Virus record (IMG/VR): IMGVR_UViG_3300032308_001681
Location: 30,542 to 94,541 of that record
Direction: 5' to 3' (one strand)
DNA from: a virus
DNA length: 64,000 nt
Shown here in pieces: positions 3,531 through 63,518 of the stretch. Made by a program: the position numbers and the translations under genes. Every line of letters starts with the position of its first letter. The first letter of the stretch is position 1. Under the pieces are notes generated by a model. That model was not told the origin of the DNA, did not search any database, and worked only from the letters and a program-made list of their open reading frames with translations.

Positions 3531-3977
3531 GTGGCTAATTACCCCGCTGGGCCAATTTCGTTTACCAATAAGGTAGACGGTGTAGACGCGGTTGTTGCGG
3601 CGGATGTTAACGTTGTCTACGGTGAGGCGGCTGCACTTGGCCTTGAACTTGGGCTTAACCCAAGGCAGAGGTCTTCAAGCACATGGCTAACTACATGGAC
3701 GTCGAGCGGAAACGCCGCACACACTGACGTAAAGTCACGGTTAGATAACGTAGAGAATGGCGCATTTCGAGCCAACACACTCCTTGTCAGCAACGTAGGT
3801 GGCTCAAGCATTGTTGCCTCGGCCGCAAACGTCAAGGGGCTCGTCATTGCCGGTGCAACTAGCCAGTCCGCTAATCTTTTGGAGCTCAAAGCAACTTCAG
3901 CCGGAGACCCTGTGACACTTGTTACTCACGAAGGCAAGTTCATTACGCAAAACATCGATGGCGGAACATCTGCCTAA
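3531..3977 (+). CDS. putative virion structural protein
   Basis: SD AAGGAG, 'ANYP..ISFTNKVDGVDAVVAADVN' N-terminus typical of phage tail-associated proteins. Confidence 0.5.
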   Translation: MANYPAGPISFTNKVDGVDAVVAADVNVVYGEAAALGLELGLNPRQRSSSTWLTTWTSSGNAAHTDVKSRLDNVENGAFRANTLLVSNVGGSSIVASAANVKGLVIAGATSQSANLLELKATSAGDPVTLVTHEGKFITQNIDGGTSA

Positions 3978-40924: not shown

Positions 40925-41023
40925 GTTGTACTCCTTTCGTATCTATAGTCCTGCTGTCTGTACAACGGTCGTACAGCAGGAGAAACGATGACGACGCCCG
41001 CAGCGGGTCGGTGTCAGTCGTTC

Positions 41024-41065
41024 GTGCCAGCCCGGGGCTTGCACCCGGGAGCCTGCTGGTCTGGC
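41024..41065 (-). ncRNA. tRNA-like intergenic element E6
   Basis: Identical 42-mer to E4. Confidence 0.7.
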
Positions 41066-41073
41066 TGGCCTGA

Positions 41074-41199
41074 CTAGGCCTTGTTGTCTGGACAACGCGT
41101 GTCGTGCAACCGATAGAACAGGTCGTCGATTACAGGAACGCGCCACCAGAATGAGTACCAGCGGTTGGTGTTGTACATCTTGCATACGATGTGAGTCAT
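41074..41199 (-). CDS. 41-aa hypothetical protein (not in ORF track)
   Basis: SD GAAGGGA; MTHIVCKMYNTNRWYSFWW...; fills the E7-E6 interval. Confidence 0.6.
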   Translation of the reverse strand: MTHIVCKMYNTNRWYSFWWRVPVIDDLFYRLHDTRCPDNKA

Positions 41200-41232
41200 G
41201 GTGTATCCCTTCTTGTTGTACGCCGGAGCGTA

Positions 41233-41280
41233 GTGCCTGCCCCGGTCGTGAGCCGGGGTGCCGAGCGGTCTCGGTCAGGC
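41233..41280 (-). ncRNA. tRNA-like intergenic element E7
   Basis: GCCTG-A-CCGAG(ACCG)CTCGG-CA-CCCCGG[CTCACGA]CCGGGG-CAGGC-AC. Confidence 0.7.
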
Positions 41281-41287
41281 CTGCGTC

Positions 41288-41794
41288 TCAAAAGACGCGG
41301 TAGGGCGAGTTGGATGCCTTGGTGCCACACGCGTCGCACAGGCCTCGGACGTTGGTGCTCAACGCCTTGGCCAATTCGAGCAGTTCGGTCAGCCTGCCTT
41401 TGGGCAGAGGAGCGTCGCAGTGGCCACAGGTGGCCGTGTCACCGGGCTCACGAGCCTCGATGGCCTGCGATGCCTGCTCGGCCTCCCAGAGGCTCAGAGC
41501 GCCGTCTGTGGCCTCATCGGCGGTCAGGTCGTCGTCCTCGTACTCGTCGGCCTCACCGGCCTGAGACGCGCCTGCCTGCCAGTGTGGCGTGCCCTGCCCC
41601 ACCGTGGCGTGGAGCACGTCGTAGAGGCGGTTGTGGGTGGCAAACGCGTCGGTCAGCCACCTGACCTCGGCCTTGTCGCCGATGCCACGAGCCTCCACGA
41701 GGTCGGTCTCGGTCTGGGAAACCGTGTTGGCAACGACATCGAAGAGTTCGAGGGCGTCGGCCACGGCGAGCGTGATGGTAACGGTTTGGGTCAT
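41288..41794 (-). CDS. hypothetical protein with C-terminal zinc ribbon
   Basis: SD GAAAGGA; CGHC...CDAC. Confidence 0.7.
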   Translation of the reverse strand: MTQTVTITLAVADALELFDVVANTVSQTETDLVEARGIGDKAEVRWLTDAFATHNRLYDVLHATVGQGTPHWQAGASQAGEADEYEDDDLTADEATDGALSLWEAEQASQAIEAREPGDTATCGHCDAPLPKGRLTELLELAKALSTNVRGLCDACGTKASNSPYRVF

Positions 41795-41876
41795 GGTATT
41801 CCTTTCGTATGGGTAGCGGATGCTGTACGGCCTGAGTCGTACAACACCGTGTGGCTGTCGTGTTTGGCACGACTGC

Positions 41877-41936
41877 GTGCCCGTGGCGGAATCGAACCGC
41901 CATCGCTCGGGGGGAGTGAGCGAGTACCAACCGGGC
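41877..41936 (-). ncRNA. tRNA-like intergenic element E8 (most tRNA-like)
   Basis: GCCCG-GTTGGTAC-TCGCTC(ACTCCCCCC)GAGCGA-TGGCGG[TTCGATT]CCGCCA-CGGGC-AC; canonical T-loop and D-loop-like GTTGGTA, no D stem. Confidence 0.75.
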
Positions 41937-41945
41937 TTGCCCGAC

Positions 41946-43910
41946 CTACCGGGCGAGGCCACGCTCGATTGCGAGCGCGACCAGACTGCGACCGAGCGTG
42001 AGGATGTCACGCGCGGAGGACAGCGAGGCGACGACCTCGCTGTTGTGGCCGTCGACCGAGTCAAGAGACTCGCCGTGGCCGTAGGGCGAGACGTACCCGA
42101 GAGCGGTGAGCACACCGGCCTCGCGCACCTCGGTCACCACGTCCTCAGCACGCTGAGCGTCGCCCCACGCGCCGTCCGTGATTGTGAAGAGAATCTTCAC
42201 AGCACGGCTGGACTTGGAGAACGTGTCGCGAGCGTAGCGGAGGCCGTCGCGAGGCTGTGTGCCACCGAGGTCGCTGGTCAGCGAACGCACCTTCTCGCCT
42301 GCGCTCTCGGCCGAGGAGTAGAGCACCTCTGCCCGACTACCGAACGCCACGACGGTGGTCGCACCGCCGATGTCGTCGATGGCGTGCTTGATGCCCCACA
42401 TGGCCTGTGTGGCCAATTCGAGGGGCTCGCCCTTCATCGAACCGCTGGCATCGAGCAGAATGACGCACTCGATGTCGGTCGCGTCCTCCTTGCCGGGGTT
42501 CCACCGGTCGAAGGCCTCGTTGACGTCACAGCCACGAAGGTAGCGTGTGGCGCTGATGCGACCACTGGCCACCTCGCGCTCCCACCCCGGGTCGTTGGCC
42601 GTCTGGATGGCGCGCAGTTCCTTTGCGAACTCGTCGCTGTAGACACGCACGTTGTCGGCCACCTTGATGTCCGTCGTCTTGGCATCGTTGAGCACGGTGC
42701 CCTCGTCGGACAGACCCTCGTCGTAATCCTCGCCGTTGTAGTCGGCGATGGTGCGAGCGATGTCTGTGGCGTGCTCATTCTCGATTGCGTCGATGATGCC
42801 TTCGAGAGTGTTGACGACCTGCGCAGTCTTCGAGTCAGCGTCACCAGCGCCAGCGCCGTCAGACGGTGTGTCGGACGGTGTGCTGGACGGTTGTCCGTCG
42901 GACGGTACAGCAGGCTGGTCACCACCGGGCTGGCCGTCGCCGGTCTGGCCTCCGCCGGTCTGGCCATCGCTGGCCTCGCCCTCGTCGGCATCGTCGTCGT
43001 CCTGACCCAGACCACCGTTGGTGGCCTCGTCGTCGGACGAGTCGTCGGTCTCGTCGGCCTGACCGGAGTCGGACTGGCCATCGCTGGCCTCGTCGTCGTC
43101 GGTCATGTCGTCGTCGCCCTGCTCGGCCTGTGACGCGTTCTGCTGGTCAGCAGTCTGCTCGCTGGCCGTGGCCGGACGCTCGCCCTCGCCGGACGCGAAC
43201 CCGGTCGGGTCAGAGCCACAGCCACCCTCCGGCTGGTCGCCGGTGTCGGACTTGAGTTGGTCGAGCAACGCGTCGAAGGTGCGAATGAGCGCCTCACCAC
43301 GCGCAAAGTCGCGAGGGAAGATGAGACCGATGTACTCGTCGAGCACGTCGGCGAACGCCTTCACGAGGTGCTGAGCCACGAAGGCCTGACGCACCGCGCG
43401 ACGTACGTCGAGGGGCAGGTACTTGCGACCGTGCGTGAGCACGAACGCCGAACCGATGGCCTTCTCGTCGGCCAGCAGGTGCTGGGCGACCGTAGCCGTG
43501 AGCCACGGCACGACAGCACGGCTGTAGCGACCGGACAGCAGGCGCTCGATGCGAGCGTCCTCAAGGATGTTGAAGGCCTTACGGTAGCCGTTCTCGCGCA
43601 CGAAGCGCGTGATGCGCGCACCGTAGCGAGGCGTGTAGAGGATGTGCGCCAACTCGTGGCAGGTGAGCCCCTTGATGGAGAGCACGCCCTCGGGCAGGTG
43701 CAGGTTGCTGGAGATGTGCTCGGTCGAGAACCAGATGCCCGATGCGTCCGACCACGCCGGTGCCGAAGCACCGCCGTCGACGAGCACCGAGCGAATCTTG
43801 CGACCGGTGACGATGGAGGCAAACCGACCGGCCACCTCGGTCGCACGCTGTGCGCGCGCCCGGTTGGGGTTGGTCGTTGTCTGGTCACGAGTTTCTGTGA
43901 GGATTGTCAT
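41946..43910 (-). CDS. metallopeptidase + acidic linker + VWA domain protein (CobT-like)
   Basis: HELAH and 'FNILEDARIE'; D/E/G-rich linker; MIDAS 'LLDASGSM', 'GGT', 'ITDG'. Confidence 0.9.
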   Translation of the reverse strand: MTILTETRDQTTTNPNRARAQRATEVAGRFASIVTGRKIRSVLVDGGASAPAWSDASGIWFSTEHISSNLHLPEGVLSIKGLTCHELAHILYTPRYGARITRFVRENGYRKAFNILEDARIERLLSGRYSRAVVPWLTATVAQHLLADEKAIGSAFVLTHGRKYLPLDVRRAVRQAFVAQHLVKAFADVLDEYIGLIFPRDFARGEALIRTFDALLDQLKSDTGDQPEGGCGSDPTGFASGEGERPATASEQTADQQNASQAEQGDDDMTDDDEASDGQSDSGQADETDDSSDDEATNGGLGQDDDDADEGEASDGQTGGGQTGDGQPGGDQPAVPSDGQPSSTPSDTPSDGAGAGDADSKTAQVVNTLEGIIDAIENEHATDIARTIADYNGEDYDEGLSDEGTVLNDAKTTDIKVADNVRVYSDEFAKELRAIQTANDPGWEREVASGRISATRYLRGCDVNEAFDRWNPGKEDATDIECVILLDASGSMKGEPLELATQAMWGIKHAIDDIGGATTVVAFGSRAEVLYSSAESAGEKVRSLTSDLGGTQPRDGLRYARDTFSKSSRAVKILFTITDGAWGDAQRAEDVVTEVREAGVLTALGYVSPYGHGESLDSVDGHNSEVVASLSSARDILTLGRSLVALAIERGLAR

Positions 43911-43945
43911 GCTGTATTCCTTTCTGATGTACGGCGGATGCCGTT

Positions 43946-43991
43946 GTGCCCTGCCCGGTCACGAACCGGGTGCCAGCAAACTGGACAGGGC
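43946..43991 (-). ncRNA. tRNA-like intergenic element E9
   Basis: GCCCTG-T-CCAG(TTTG)CTGG-CA-CCCGG[TTCGTGA]CCGGG-CAGGGC-AC. Confidence 0.75.
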
Positions 43992-44011
43992 TGTGGAGCC
44001 GGTGCCACGGC

Positions 44012-45346
44012 CTAGACCGTGACACCTAACTCCTGCGCGATTGCCGTGCGCTTCAGGTCGAAGAGCATGCGAACCGCGTCGAGGTCGACGACGTTGCGGA
44101 ACTTGTCGAACAAGCAGTGCTCGGCTCCGGCCATACCGCCGTCGGGGTCGAGGGCGATGTCTTGGAAGTCGCGCACCATGCGCGTGGTGAAGAGCGTCTT
44201 GACCTCGCGAGCGTCGTACTGCTTGCGAATCGAGAACACCACGTCGAGCAACGTCGACGACTTGATGAACTTGGCCTCGACCTCGCGGTCGTAGACGAAG
44301 GTCGTCGTGACGAACCGGTCTTCGAGCGCCTCATCGAGTCGGTTCGTTCCGGCGTAGCCGGGGTTGGAATCGAAGATGAAGAGCACGTTGTCTGGAATCA
44401 CGATGTCGCGGTTGTCGTACTTCGACACCTGCAACCGGCGTTCCTGCAGGATGCGCAGGAAGAACGCGTTGGCCTTGGACGACATGCGGTTGGCCTCGTT
44501 GATGAGAACCACCGCACCGTTGGGCGAGAACTGCACCGCCTCGGCCAAGGCCGACCAGCGCCACGCCAACTTGTTGCCCTCGCCGGTCGGAATCCACTCG
44601 CCCTGAATCACGGCCTCATCGGTCTGAGGGTTGCAGTCGATGGTGACGAAGGGAACGCCCCAGACCGATGCGATGTGACGAGCCGACGAGGTCTTGCCGG
44701 TTCCGGCGTGCCCCCAGATGCCCACTGACTTGCGTGTGCGCTTGGCCACCGAGTAGAGGTTGCGCTCGGTGAAGCCGGGAGCCAGCGTGCGTTCGACGTA
44801 CCCGGCGCAGTCTTCACGCGTCGGCGTGTAGAGCGCGGTGTGAATCTCGTTGGCAAGGCCAGCGGTCACGACCGGAGCCACAGCGACCGGTGCCGGGGTG
44901 GGCTCGTCAAATGTAGCGAGCACCTCGGGCTCCGGAACCCGGACGACGGTCACGACCGGTGAGGCCGACCCGGCGCGAGGCAGGTACTTGCCAAGCGACT
45001 CGGGCGCACTGACCGTCTCCTGCAGGATGGTGTCGAGCGTGGCCTGCGCCAGCGCCTGTGTGACGTTGGTGCCGGTCACCTTGCGCTGGATGTTTTGAAG
45101 AAGCGACTCGGGCTTCTTGCCTGCGTCGATGTCCTCGGTGTTGCCAGCGGTCAGGCGAAGCGAGGCCGGTGCGCCAATGACGCGCTCGTCCTCGTTGAAG
45201 GTCGGCAGGCCTGCCAGCCACGAACCGGCGATGCCTCGCTTGCCGTGGATGCGTGAGTAAACGACAGCCTCGCCAGCGTGAGCAATGACAACGGTCTGTC
45301 GTGTCTCGTTGGCGTTGGGTGCCGACTGAATGATTGTTGCGAACAT
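44012..45346 (-). CDS. MoxR/CobS-like AAA+ ATPase
   Basis: Walker A GHAGTGKT, Walker B 'VLINEAN', 'NPGYAGT..LDEALEDRF'; start reassigned to MFATIIQ after SD AAGGAGG. Confidence 0.9.
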   Translation of the reverse strand: MFATIIQSAPNANETRQTVVIAHAGEAVVYSRIHGKRGIAGSWLAGLPTFNEDERVIGAPASLRLTAGNTEDIDAGKKPESLLQNIQRKVTGTNVTQALAQATLDTILQETVSAPESLGKYLPRAGSASPVVTVVRVPEPEVLATFDEPTPAPVAVAPVVTAGLANEIHTALYTPTREDCAGYVERTLAPGFTERNLYSVAKRTRKSVGIWGHAGTGKTSSARHIASVWGVPFVTIDCNPQTDEAVIQGEWIPTGEGNKLAWRWSALAEAVQFSPNGAVVLINEANRMSSKANAFFLRILQERRLQVSKYDNRDIVIPDNVLFIFDSNPGYAGTNRLDEALEDRFVTTTFVYDREVEAKFIKSSTLLDVVFSIRKQYDAREVKTLFTTRMVRDFQDIALDPDGGMAGAEHCLFDKFRNVVDLDAVRMLFDLKRTAIAQELGVTV

Positions 45347-45400
45347 GTGTGCCCTCCTTGAGCGGTTGTGTAGGTCGGGTGGTGCAAGCGCGTGAGCGCC

Positions 45401-45449
45401 GTGCCCCTGCCACGTCACGAACGTGGAGACCGGCTGGCCGGTCAGGGGC
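45401..45449 (-). ncRNA. tRNA-like intergenic element E10
   Basis: GCCCCTG-ACCGG(CCAG)CCGGT-CT-CCACG[TTCGTGA]CGTGG-CAGGGGC-AC: 7-bp acceptor + 5-bp T stem. Confidence 0.75.
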
Positions 45450-45456
45450 TGTGGTG

Positions 45457-45753
45457 TTAGTCGACGAAGGTCAGTGCGTCCCACGCGTCGACGAAGGGGC
45501 GCTCCTCTTTGCTGAACGATTTGTGCTGACGCGCGAGCGCCTGCAGTTCGTCGCAGACCCGAACTCGGAACTCGGGGTCGAGCAAGTCGCGGAAGAACAG
45601 GGCGGTCGGTGAGTCGACCGTGCCGTCCGTCTCGATGAGACCGACGATGTCGGCTACGGCGCGTTCGAGTTTCTGCGTCTTGTTGAGCGTGCCGAGAACG
45701 ACGATGCCAGCGAGCGTGCGGTCGGTGATGAGGATGGGGCGTGTGTCTTTCAT
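45457..45753 (-). CDS. hypothetical protein (first gene of minus-strand operon)
   Basis: SD GAAAGGA. Confidence 0.75.
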   Translation of the reverse strand: MKDTRPILITDRTLAGIVVLGTLNKTQKLERAVADIVGLIETDGTVDSPTALFFRDLLDPEFRVRVCDELQALARQHKSFSKEERPFVDAWDALTFVD

Positions 45754-45786
45754 GGTGGTTCCTTTCGGTTAGGCGACGGTGTCGCA

Positions 45787-45835
45787 GTGCCCTGCCACGG
45801 CGTGAGCGTGGATGCCGAGCGGTCTCGGTCAGGGC
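45787..45835 (-). ncRNA. tRNA-like intergenic element E11
   Basis: GCCCTG-A-CCGAG(ACCG)CTCGG-CAT-CCACG[CTCACGC]CGTGG-CAGGGC-AC. Confidence 0.7.
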
Positions 45836-45862
45836 GATGTCACCGTGGGCAACCGGCAAGCC

Positions 45863-46245
45863 GGGGTCACTCGGTCAGAGACCGAGAGCAATTACGCGCA
45901 CCTCTGGTGACGAAGTCTGGACGCATGGTGGCCGGTGACGAGCCGTGTTGCCGGTGGTGTGCCCTTGTCGCCTTGTCGGTTCGCCCGGGTGATTCTCTCT
46001 TGTCGCACCGAAGTGCGCGGAGGGGGGTCGAGCCGAGTCGGTGTGAGGTGCCCGGGATGGGGTCAACGTCGTCGGTCAGATTGCGTCTGGTTGATGTCTA
46101 GGCCGAAGCGCTAGAGGCGTGATGAGCAGAGCACGCGTGCGTCGTTGGTTCGTGTCCCCCGGCCGAGCGCGTCGCAGATGCGACCTTCGGGGCTGGGGAG
46201 CCGGTGACCCATCCTGAACCTTTCGGCGTGAGCGGACGTGACCCC
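45863..46245 (-). ncRNA. putative ~380-nt structured RNA/leader
   Basis: Ends pair (GGGGTCAC/GTGACCCC); two cUUCGg tetraloops and further hairpins on the minus strand; no credible ORF. Confidence 0.5.
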
Positions 46246-46248
46246 CCC

Positions 46249-46276
46249 AGCCTAGCACAGGTGTAGGACACTCCAA
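46249..46276 (-). promoter_or_regulatory. putative SigA-type promoter of minus-strand operon
   Basis: Extended -10 TGcTAGGCT; possible -35 TTGGAG 16 bp upstream; overlapped by an ACAGGTG/CACCTGT inverted repeat. Confidence 0.5.
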
Positions 46277-46862
46277 CACCACCTGTACACAACTCGTACA
46301 CCGCGTGTCGCGGTCATCCGTGAATCGCCCCGGCCTCCTGACAGGCCTGTCGAGGGTGGGGTCACAGGGGAGGGGCACCCTCCCCTCATCCCAAGGCCAA
46401 GGGTGGTGGATAGGGAGAGAGAGAAGAGAGAGACAGACACACTCGTGTCCTCGGCCTGTGATGCTGGCACAGCCCGACGTGGGCGAGGTGGCAGGCCACC
46501 TGATACCTGACAGCAACTCGGGGAGGTGGTCGGTGGTCTGGTCACGCCAGCGGACGGCCTGCCTGCTGTGCTAGCAGTAGCCGAGTCGCCGACGTGGCCT
46601 CGTGGCTGGCACCGCCACCTCGGAGAGGTGCGCCATCGAGCCTGCCATCGCGAGCCCCGGCGACCGCCGAGCCACCGCGCCAGCACTGGCCGGTGTCACG
46701 ACAGCCACATGACTAGAAGTCATGGTGGACGACCAGCCGTACGGCTCGCGCCCAATTCGTACGGCACCGGTACGACAGACCCCCCCACCCTTAGCCGAGC
46801 CGCTGGGCGGGAGCGGCCAGATGAAATCCCCGGATACGGCCTGAAAGTTGAGGCAGTAGCCG

Positions 46863-46896
46863 TAAAACGCCCCTGCAGGTGTGTCAAAATGGTTAT
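46863..46896 (+). promoter_or_regulatory. leaderless promoter motif (AAAACGCCCC-N8-TGnCAnAnT-N6-start); first of 10 core copies
   Basis: Core copies start at 46882, 47869, 48353, 48775, 49735, 51962, 52925, 53767, 55056, 56394; each ends exactly 6 nt before ATG/GTG. Confidence 0.75.
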
Positions 46897-47415
46897 ATGG
46901 CTAAGGCAATCTTTGAGCGGCTCGAGCATCCCGAGGGGCAAGACCTCGGCAATGGTCGGCGCATGGTCGAAGGTCCCATGCCAGAGGAAACGCGCAACCA
47001 ACACACCCTCCGCAGTTACGGCACACCCCGACGCGTGAGCTTTTATGACGACAATGCCAAAGAGTCGTTCGCCGGTCCCTACCTCAAAGAAGACGAGGGT
47101 GGCGAAAAGGGTCTCGTCGGCTATGCGGACATCTACCGCGAGCCGGACCTCCCCTCGGCAATATACGGCACCCAGCCCAATGGTCGGAAAATCATCAACT
47201 TTACGCAAAACACCAATGTTGGCTACATGCGTACTGCAGGCAGGTACCAAGGTGGCGGCATAGGTCGTCAGATGTTCAACTATGTCGTGAACACCACTAA
47301 CCCAAAGAGCCACATCGACCTCGGTCGGGTAGTTGACGAACGCATGGGTCACATGTGGGAACAGCATAAAGAACAAGGCGACACCCCTCACATGCACGGC
47401 AAGGTTTGGTACTAG
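46897..47415 (+). CDS. GNAT-family acetyltransferase
   Basis: 'VGYMRT...YQGGGIGRQMF' acetyl-CoA motif A. Confidence 0.7.
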   Translation: MAKAIFERLEHPEGQDLGNGRRMVEGPMPEETRNQHTLRSYGTPRRVSFYDDNAKESFAGPYLKEDEGGEKGLVGYADIYREPDLPSAIYGTQPNGRKIINFTQNTNVGYMRTAGRYQGGGIGRQMFNYVVNTTNPKSHIDLGRVVDERMGHMWEQHKEQGDTPHMHGKVWY

Positions 47416-47417
47416 AC

Positions 47418-47846
47418 ATGAGCTCTCTTGACTGGACAGAAGTGCCCGACCCTGATGAATACCGGGATGCACGGCGCACGATTGCTTTCCTTGCGTCAAG
47501 CAAGGGCCACGGCTACACGATTCATGACGGTCCCTACAACGACGTAGAAAACGGCACTCACGACGTAGTTATTGACTCTCCAGAAGGAGAGGAAGTCGGC
47601 ACTATGACGCATGACGACTTCGGCCACGTTGGCTACTTCTACATGCACCCAGACCACCACGTTGCCATTCCCAAGCTCTTGACCCACGTAATCGATTGGT
47701 CAGAACAGCACGGGTGGGCACCCCCGCACTCGGGAGGCGCGATGACGCCACAGGCTTACAAGTTTGCAAAGCGAGTGCTGCCCAACAACATTCGGATGAG
47801 TGGTGCTTACGGCGGTGCAGAACCGCACAACCGGTACGAACGCTAA
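47418..47846 (+). CDS. GNAT-like protein lacking motif A
   Basis: 'VGTM...GHV.YFYMHPDH...L...P.S...MT'. Confidence 0.55.
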   Translation: MSSLDWTEVPDPDEYRDARRTIAFLASSKGHGYTIHDGPYNDVENGTHDVVIDSPEGEEVGTMTHDDFGHVGYFYMHPDHHVAIPKLLTHVIDWSEQHGWAPPHSGGAMTPQAYKFAKRVLPNNIRMSGAYGGAEPHNRYER

Positions 47847-47883
47847 CCATAAAACGCCCCGGTAGTTCTGTCACACTGGATAT

Positions 47884-48330
47884 ATGGCACCTGTACCAAA
47901 AGACCCGATGCGCAAGCTCGAGTTCCTCGCTGCTCGCACCAAGTCGAGTGGCCGGTACAGCTTCTTTCACACCTCGGGCAAAAGGCGCCACATTATCAGC
48001 GTGGTAGACAACACCGACCCTATCGGCGTAGTGCAGCCCATCGGCGGTATGACGTGGCACAAGGAGACGGGTGAAGTCGACAACATCGGTGTGCACCCAG
48101 ACCATAGCCATGTTTTGTCAGCATTGCTGATGGAAGCAAAAACCGTCGCGGAACGCGAAGGGTTTGCTGCGCCTACGCGCGGGTACCTGATGACCAAGGA
48201 CAGCGCACGTCTCGTGCGGAAGATTAACCCAGAGGCCATGAACGACCGTCGTGCCAACGTGACCGACAAGACAACTGACTGGCGTGGCCAAGTAGACAGT
48301 GTAGGCATCCACAGCTACAAGCTGGATTAA
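47884..48330 (+). CDS. GNAT-like protein lacking motif A
   Basis: 'IGGMTWHKETGEVDNIGVHPDH'. Confidence 0.6.
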   Translation: MAPVPKDPMRKLEFLAARTKSSGRYSFFHTSGKRRHIISVVDNTDPIGVVQPIGGMTWHKETGEVDNIGVHPDHSHVLSALLMEAKTVAEREGFAAPTRGYLMTKDSARLVRKINPEAMNDRRANVTDKTTDWRGQVDSVGIHSYKLD

Positions 48331-48367
48331 CCTAAAAACGCCCCTACTGTTCTGGCACACTTGATAT

Positions 48368-48724
48368 ATGAGTAGACGTGAAGAGTTTCGTAAGAGTGCT
48401 CTTTATCATGGGACCACTCATCCCTTTGAGATAGGGGACATCATTGAGCCACAACAACGTCCAGATGGCTTTAGAGAGCCTTTGGCATTTGCTGCTGAAG
48501 ACCCAAGGGCAGCTTCTGTGTTTGCGGCTGCCAAGGCACGTAAGCACGATTTGCCACCTCGCCTGTTTAACGTCGAACCCTTAGAGGATGACGACACGTA
48601 TAAGACAGAGGAGGGTCTTGGGGGCATGATGCTTTCCCGCAGTAAAAAAGGCTTTCGTGTTACAGGAAAAGCCACTCCTACGGAAAAAGACCCTTTGGGC
48701 AATACTTTGAAGTACACGCGATAA
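48368..48724 (+). CDS. Arr-like ADP-ribosyltransferase-fold protein
   Basis: 'LYHGT.HPF..GDIIEP...AFAA...VEP...S.KGFRV'. Confidence 0.7.
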   Translation: MSRREEFRKSALYHGTTHPFEIGDIIEPQQRPDGFREPLAFAAEDPRAASVFAAAKARKHDLPPRLFNVEPLEDDDTYKTEEGLGGMMLSRSKKGFRVTGKATPTEKDPLGNTLKYTR

Positions 48725-48789
48725 TCTACGCGCGATTCTTCTGGGTTGGTTATCCCGCCACCCCCTAAATAATCTGGCACACTGGATAT

Positions 48790-48999
48790 ATGAACAAGTC
48801 GCTATCTCACAGCCAGATGAGGGCACTCCACCCGGAGTTCTTTAAAGCCCCCGTAGCGGCTCGCCGTCCAACAGCAGACCTCGGTGACTTGGAGAACGCA
48901 CAGATTGTGCGTCGCCCCAAGGCAGCGCCGCCCAAGCAGACGAAAACACAAGTCATTGAACCCGGCACTATCGTGCCGCCTCGCGTCTACGGAGCATAA
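48790..48999 (+). CDS. hypothetical protein
   Basis: Leaderless motif start. Confidence 0.65.
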   Translation: MNKSLSHSQMRALHPEFFKAPVAARRPTADLGDLENAQIVRRPKAAPPKQTKTQVIEPGTIVPPRVYGA

Positions 49000-63445: not shown

Positions 63446-63518
63446 TCCTCGATAGCTCAATTGGCAGAGCAGCGAGCTGTTAACTCGCAGGTTCGTGGTT
63501 CGAGTCCACGTCGGGGAG
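63446..63518 (+). tRNA. tRNA-Asn (GTT), CCA not encoded
   Basis: Acceptor TCCTCGA/TCGGGGA, D arm GCTCaattggcaGAGC, anticodon loop CTGTTAA, T arm CGTGG-TTCGAGT-CCACG. Confidence 0.95.

Follow-up and report, generated by a model that had tools for sequence, protein, structure and literature searches.

The segment at 45863-46245 on the minus strand is probably the promoter-proximal part, i.e., the first 380 nt, of the minus operon's long 5' untranslated leader, which extends for ~490 nt (45754-46243) and carries no coding signal. Our best reading is that this C-rich leader is evolutionarily plastic and not a discrete conserved structured RNA of the kind that the initial annotation had proposed.

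The source is a freshwater actinophage of 94.5 kb, represented by a virus record of 94,541 bp with direct terminal repeats, and the window analyzed here is the 64,000-nt stretch that makes up bases 30542-94541 of that record. The segment lies inside a gene-free stretch of 1.1 kb (45754-46878; 65% GC) between two divergent operons, of which the plus-strand one starts with an ATG at 46897. The minus operon opens with a 98-codon gene (45457-45753) and continues with genes for an AAA_5 ATPase (44015-45346), a VWA-domain protein (41946-43910) and, farther along, a WhiB-like protein and a tyrosine integrase; given this gene content, we take the virus to be a temperate actinophage. In the 6 kb of the minus operon nearest its promoter, with the leader counted in (~41-46.9 kb), GC amounts to 64-66% compared with ~50% elsewhere, and relatives that share the gene order have GC contents between 40% and 62%. 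This contrast suggests that 41000-46900 is a module from a GC-richer phage.

The absence of a credible ORF, claimed in the initial annotation, is borne out by codon periodicity, protein families and protein-level comparison alike. Three-phase GC is flat across 45760-46500, i.e., there is no codon periodicity; the flanking genes show a phase pattern of 0.85/0.45/0.65, and periodicity starts at the first gene. None of the nine ORFs overlapping the gene-free region matched a Pfam family, and six-frame peptides compared with ~290 related loci gave no match except in block A (described below), which is conserved as nucleotides. Single-base insertions or deletions occur in relatives at 46315 and 46758. 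We did consider that the leader might be translated after all, through a 33-codon ORF (46111-46212, minus strand) whose peptide would couple ribosomes to polymerase and shield the C-rich leader from Rho. This ORF is preceded by CGAAAGG (46219-46225), a string found three times on the minus strand in 6 kb, the other two occurrences being ribosome-binding sites of real genes; its spacing to the ATG is 6 nt, compared with 7 nt at the first gene, where CGAAAGG (45761-45767) precedes the ATG at 45751-45753. In addition, GC within the ORF is highest at the third codon position, and the ORF falls entirely within the portion of the leader that relatives keep. However, its codon periodicity (46212-46111) is weak, the 33-residue peptide matches no Pfam family, a distant relative with a similar promoter (L006) has no comparable ORF after its promoter box, and a stray CGAAAGG followed by a start and 33 open codons would arise by chance in 65% GC with a probability that we roughly estimate at ~0.1. 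A translated leader thus strikes us as quite improbable.

Among the elements that the initial annotation had described, the predicted promoter is the best supported. Read from the sequence, it comprises a -35-like hexamer TTGGAG (46271-46276), a 16-nt spacer, the extended -10 TGcTAGGCT (46249-46257; the "D box"), which is present as had been claimed, and, directly after it, a run of seven G (46242-46248) that would serve as discriminator; from this arrangement transcription is predicted to start near 46241-46243. L006, with an ATPase that shares 34% identity with ours, has kept this box. Around the -10, 29 of 35 bases are identical, and the full match covers 39 nt at 82% (GGAGTGTCCTACACCTGTGCTAGGCTGGGGGGGTC in our phage, GGAATGTCCTACGGATGTGCAAGACTGGGGGGGTC in L006), with TCGGAA in the -35 position at a spacing equal to ours; it lies ~450 nt upstream of the first gene of L006. 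For close relatives (runs X3, X4, and X7), the differences listed include a single one within the -10, at 46255, which alters only the free base of TGn. Conservation of the box relative to its flanks, which cannot be aligned with those of L006, thus extends to one distant lineage in addition to close relatives.

The same design, a -10-like NANNNT followed by a G run, recurs at 46780-46792 (the end of block A) and in relatives. In both boxes the second base of the hexamer is A and the sixth is T, with five to seven G directly after it, and the paired boxes of one genome resemble each other, e.g., GCTAAGGGTG7TC (block A end) and GCTAGGCTG7TC in ours, CACGCTTAACTGTG5 and CACGCTCAATTTG6 in L083. 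We read both as predicted promoters of one class that point into the minus operon. A scan with a strict E. coli-type sigma-70 consensus called neither box a promoter, so the prediction rests on an actinobacterial-style reading together with conservation in one distant relative. The putative promoter has the motif layout used here for actinobacterial SigA-type promoters (a -10 whose second base is A and whose sixth is T, an optional TGn, and a -35-like hexamer at 16-18 nt).

Downstream of this promoter, the initial annotation had placed a large structured non-coding RNA with paired ends (GGGGUCAC/GUGACCCC) that might be freed at a tRNA-like element (E11). Spelled out, this reading calls for a discrete molecule of ~380-400 nt that would bind RNA polymerase, serve as its decoy, or provide processive antitermination for the 13-kb operon; a ~170-nt middle part that close relatives lack (see below) would be a dispensable variable domain. 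The sequence features behind this proposal are real. All of the listed hairpins are found, namely GTCGC-ATCT-GCGAC (46184-46171), TCTAGCGC-TTCG-GCCTAGA (46115-46097), CGCAC-TTCG-GTGCG (46017-46004), and CTCGGTC-TCT-GACCGAG (45886-45870), as are the GAAA within CGAAAGG (46225-46219) and the 8-nt end complement, formed by GGGGTCAC at 46245-46238 and GTGACCCC at 45870-45863, where GTGACCCC follows the last hairpin (45863-45886 together) as the 3' partner of the proposed closing helix. The transcribed strand carries strand-specific stable loops, two C(UUCG)G and one GAAA; the two C(UUCG)G loops stand within 100 nt and are two of the three in 6 kb, which is mildly unusual, and one of them sits in the part that relatives lack. 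The closing helix itself fared less well: the complement exists, but in 4.5-5.7% of shuffles (~5%) the 5' end finds an equally long partner far downstream, and GTGACCCC and GGGTCAC each occur twice nearby, the second GTGACCCC at 46358-46365.

Folding energies argue against a large structured RNA. The 383-nt segment has a minimum free energy of -139 kcal/mol, compared with -136.9 ± 6 for dinucleotide shuffles (z -0.35), and the opposite strand gives z -1.41. Its parts do not stand out either (5' part +0.95, middle -1.18, 3' part -1.61), nor does the form with the natural deletion (-0.87), and the leader from the G run and transcription start to E11 scores -1.0 with E11 and -0.01 without it. The segment, its parts and the leader body therefore fold no better than dinucleotide shuffles, and the generic signature of a structured RNA, a folding energy clearly below that of such shuffles, is absent. 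There are six perfect hairpins where 3.3 ± 1.7 would be expected, and half of the six are part of E11. The Rfam search that had been proposed as a check gave no family match for 45863-46245: across the whole window, Rfam 15 at gathering score returned only a tRNA-Asn at 63446, and across 45600-47000 at E ≤ 10, 4227 models returned three sub-threshold, chance-level matches, none of them inside the segment. The families covered include 6S, tmRNA, RNase P, ROOL, GOLLD, riboswitches, and leaders, so that 6S and the large phage RNAs are without a match in the segment even at this permissive cut-off.

Two further points speak for the structured RNA. In relatives, the leaders in this position are far more stable than their shuffles (z -5 to -7 overall and, once the terminal element is left off, -2.8 to -4.4), which means that the group as a whole may have a structured leader that folding energies fail to bring out in the GC-rich version studied here. 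Moreover, a long operon with eleven structured elements would plausibly need antitermination. Close relatives bear on the question from both sides. Contigs from public DNA runs of four studies (X2, X3, X4, and X7), 90-98% identical to our sequence, show in all four runs a joint from 46090 to 45904, with 15 bridging letters that match 45918-45905, for a net absence of ~170 nt; of the public runs that contain the stretch, none is recorded as RNA. This insertion/deletion (45915-46090, minus strand), present here and absent in the four, is edged by a direct repeat CCAGAC (46090-46085 and 45920-45915) and contains the CGCAC-UUCG-GUGCG hairpin and the most C-rich stretch of the leader (C/G up to 2.3; the leader as a whole has 39% C and 27% G). 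It shows that the 383 nt need not adopt any one particular fold, and conservation of the proposed RNA is interrupted in its middle. The relatives that lack the middle do retain both ends of the proposed closing helix. Furthermore, substitutions in the retained non-coding DNA (2.4-4.7%) are no more frequent than in the ATPase gene (1.3-6.8%), which suggests some constraint on the region as a whole beyond that on a mere spacer. ATPases of the closest relatives are 89%, 59%, 56%, and 48% identical to ours, and an exact 25-mer from the leader had no match among viral contigs.

Just below the segment lies E11 (45783-45838, minus strand), a tRNA-like element made up of a closing stem and two hairpins, which immediately precedes the first gene's ribosome-binding site. 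Other members of its repeat family are found at 41229-41279 and elsewhere; E11 shares the fold of the 41.2-kb copy, with changed stems (z -2.6). E11 is likely to be a processing site that sets the 3' end of the leader, and a transcript from the promoter to E11 would be the most likely physical product. The first gene behind it is variable: it is absent in X2 (joint from 45400 to 45787) and in X4 is swapped for 37 other letters (joint from 45407 to 45832), and the two joints coincide with E10 and E11, both of them tRNA-like elements. The 98-codon gene thus has the appearance of a cassette, as would fit a reading of the tRNA-like elements as a cassette array, and the exchange of leader and first gene at such elements, as shown by natural variants, bears on whether they are processing sites, recombination hinges, or both. 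With ~170 nt of the leader missing in relatives and the first gene coming and going, function would depend on bulk properties of the leader and not on a defined fold.

A similar picture emerges at greater evolutionary distance. Neither blastn nor tblastn found matching DNA in the phage collection, and their only hits were ATPases of ≤30% identity in Gordonia and Brevibacterium phages; the search for related loci found none with single proteins as query and, with a protein alignment, only relatives of ≤39% identity. Through alignment of ATPase homologues and a DNA pattern, we gathered ~290 loci of uncultured phages, which our 1.1 kb matches at three places: block A (the first 90 nt of the region), block B (weakly), and the 39-nt promoter of L006. 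Below the promoter box the leader aligns with these distant relatives no better than shuffles do (local alignment scores of 15.5-17 vs. 16 ± 2.6), which leaves the presumed structured RNA without an alignable homologue in the ~290 loci and without the conservation that the initial annotation would have it show. What recurs is the arrangement, as an ORF-free leader of 430-495 nt stands between such a box and the first gene in five lineages. The leader of one relative (L005:6460-6860) holds four copies of CTATCGTCATCCTnnTTGGGG, two of which lie in ~135-nt repeats that end in a G6...C4 hairpin and look iteron-like. Taken with the folding, the Rfam result and the middle part that four runs lack, these comparisons make a discrete structured RNA unlikely, and its proposed roles as polymerase binder, antiterminator, or decoy are unsupported given shuffle-level folding and relatives that do without the ~170-nt middle. 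Of the three outcomes that the initial annotation named as refuting its proposal, two have been observed, namely shuffle-level folding and a lack of conservation in relatives. We therefore retain the long untranslated leader as the preferred reading.

The conserved part of the gene-free region, and the more interesting object than 45863-46245 itself, lies upstream. Across 46358-46866 (minus strand) we count four sequence blocks in summary, described here under A, B, and C, whose order and spacing are kept in >50 uncultured phage lineages (L005, L006, L008-L026, L083, L126, and L178-L295) of 36-65% GC, always between divergent operons and ~1-1.4 kb upstream of the AAA ATPase cluster. Block A (46778-46866), present in >50 lineages and abutting the start of the plus-strand operon, contains GGCTACTGCC (46852-46861), a central motif, and TAAGGGT with seven G (46780-46793). 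Its invariant GGCTACTGCCT lies, on the other strand, just upstream of -10-like TAAAAT boxes of the relatives' plus-strand genes. Block B (46498-46582) contains the second GGCTACTG (46574-46582), GACCAGAC (46536-46543), and TGTCAGGTATCAGGT (46498-46512), with a distance from GGCTACTG to TATCAGG(T) that is constant at 69-77 nt across lineages. Block C (46358-46433) has a pyrimidine tract (46412-46433), a G/C hairpin, AGGGGAGGG-UGC-CCCUCCCCU (46366-46386), and then GTGACCCC (46358-46365). The hairpin keeps two pairs via two-sided changes in relatives and coincides with a sub-threshold Rfam match (46378-46418); with its exception, RNAalifold found no covarying structure in block A or across A-C. 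A long-range pairing of the G run of block A with the C run after the block C hairpin was considered and dropped, as its flanks lack consistent covariation.

Several observations concern the plus-strand side of block A. The contigs of close relatives diverge completely from ours inside the block at 46838/46866, and beyond this point their differing sequence again carries AGGCAGTAGCC, so the motif marks a module boundary that joins different plus-strand gene sets. On the plus strand, a ~45-nt repeated unit TAACC.TAAAACGCCCC...TGTCACACTGGATAT occurs at 46857-46901, 47844-47888, 48328-48372, and 48760-48793; these units end at the ATG of successive plus-strand genes, without a Shine-Dalgarno sequence, and are likely, as predicted from this placement, to be promoters of leaderless transcripts. 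Relatives have GGCAGTAGCC followed by TAAAAT, 6 nt before the ATG, and a literature search for GGCAGTAGCC returned unrelated primers only. The block A pattern found almost only chance matches in genome contigs. A look-alike is present in the genome of Actinobacteria bacterium IMCC26077 (CP015606.1; L310) at ~3575-3655, with GGGCTACTGCCT ... CCATGGCT ... TTTAAGGGGTGGGG, and this stretch may be a prophage remnant and a clue to the host of the AT-rich relatives.

Blocks A-C look like DNA-level control sites, i.e., candidate promoters, operators, and perhaps an origin. An ORF-free kilobase at a point of divergence is a usual site of phage origins, and the segment itself might act as DNA, forming the outer portion of an origin of replication, or of an operator field, that takes up the whole 1.1-kb divergent region, its hairpins being incidental or protein-binding inverted repeats. 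The blocks do behave in a DNA-like manner: their primary sequence is conserved without covariation, and their features include a tract of pyrimidine/purine asymmetry as well as a G/C inverted repeat. They also contain tandem direct repeats, just upstream of the second GGCTACTG before block B (46583-46620), whose position is kept and whose sequence is lineage-specific (TTGATAGC twice, GGTGACA twice, GCCGCGAT twice in L126, GCCACG twice in ours), the pattern expected of a candidate binding site that co-evolves with a lineage-specific protein. Yet no conserved block falls inside 45863-46245, which is the least conserved part of the region, has 170 nt that are dispensable, and lies downstream of the conserved promoter box on the transcribed side. 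For the segment, as distinct from the blocks, a role as DNA site is hence unlikely. Also unlikely, in our judgment, is an arrangement in which the whole 1.1 kb forms one conserved non-coding locus of a large freshwater actinophage clade and yields two tandem non-coding RNAs of ~0.4 kb, starting at the 46780 and 46242 boxes and ending, respectively, at the G/C hairpin with C run (46358-46386) and at E11, with the RNAs, and not the DNA, switching the divergent operons or priming replication. If this were true, 45863-46245 would be the fast-evolving second RNA of the pair.

The preferred reading, a long untranslated leader, has counterparts in well-known systems. Bacterial and phage operons can have long 5' leaders with Rho-dependent attenuation or stabilization by 5' hairpins, as do mgtA and corA of Salmonella and the rho gene. 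Like these, ours leaves several hundred nucleotides untranslated ahead of the first gene, includes a C-rich, G-poor stretch (C/G up to 2.3), has short stable hairpins near its 5' end, and keeps its position while its sequence is poorly conserved. Unlike them, it shows no detectable ligand-sensing or other conserved fold and ends in a tRNA-like element, and a role for Rho would here be suggested by composition only. As with lambda nut (boxA/boxB) and HK022 put, a hairpin-containing RNA would follow just downstream of the predicted promoter of a long phage operon; however, put (~70 nt) has two defined stem-loops conserved among relatives and nut a conserved boxA/boxB, while our leader lacks conservation past the promoter box and has structure no better than chance. 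It shares with ROOL, GOLLD, and 6S RNA the ~400-nt size class, a phage location, and a tRNA-like sequence nearby, but differs in having no Rfam match (4227 models), no evident covariation, and no excess stability. Finally, as in transcripts punctuated by tRNAs for processing, E11 closes the leader and shares its fold with the other tRNA-like elements of the operon, and a predicted cut at E11 would yield a leader fragment with a defined 3' end; the leader itself, in contrast to the elements between genes, falls outside that RNA family.

Our data and these likenesses suggest a simple model. Host RNA polymerase would start near 46242 at the actinobacterial-type promoter (TTGGAG, 16 nt, TGcTAGGCT, G7) and transcribe ~490 nt of C-rich non-coding RNA that carries a few short stable hairpins, and would then reach E11 (45838-45783), the ribosome-binding site, and the ATG at 45753. 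Should enzymes of host tRNA processing cleave E11, a piece of leader ~400 nt long would be set free as a by-product. Candidate roles, suggested by composition, are protection of the 5' end by the hairpins or Rho-dependent attenuation at the C-rich, G-poor tract; either would affect the stability or the termination of the transcript.

While a candidate "large phage RNA" is thereby removed, an ordinary long leader behind a predicted promoter takes its place—an ordinary kind of element inside a conserved, undescribed control region. That control region, shared by >50 uncultured freshwater actinophage lineages and located at the divergence of their two early operons, offers a concrete place to seek promoters, operators, and an origin in a phage group that has no cultured model.
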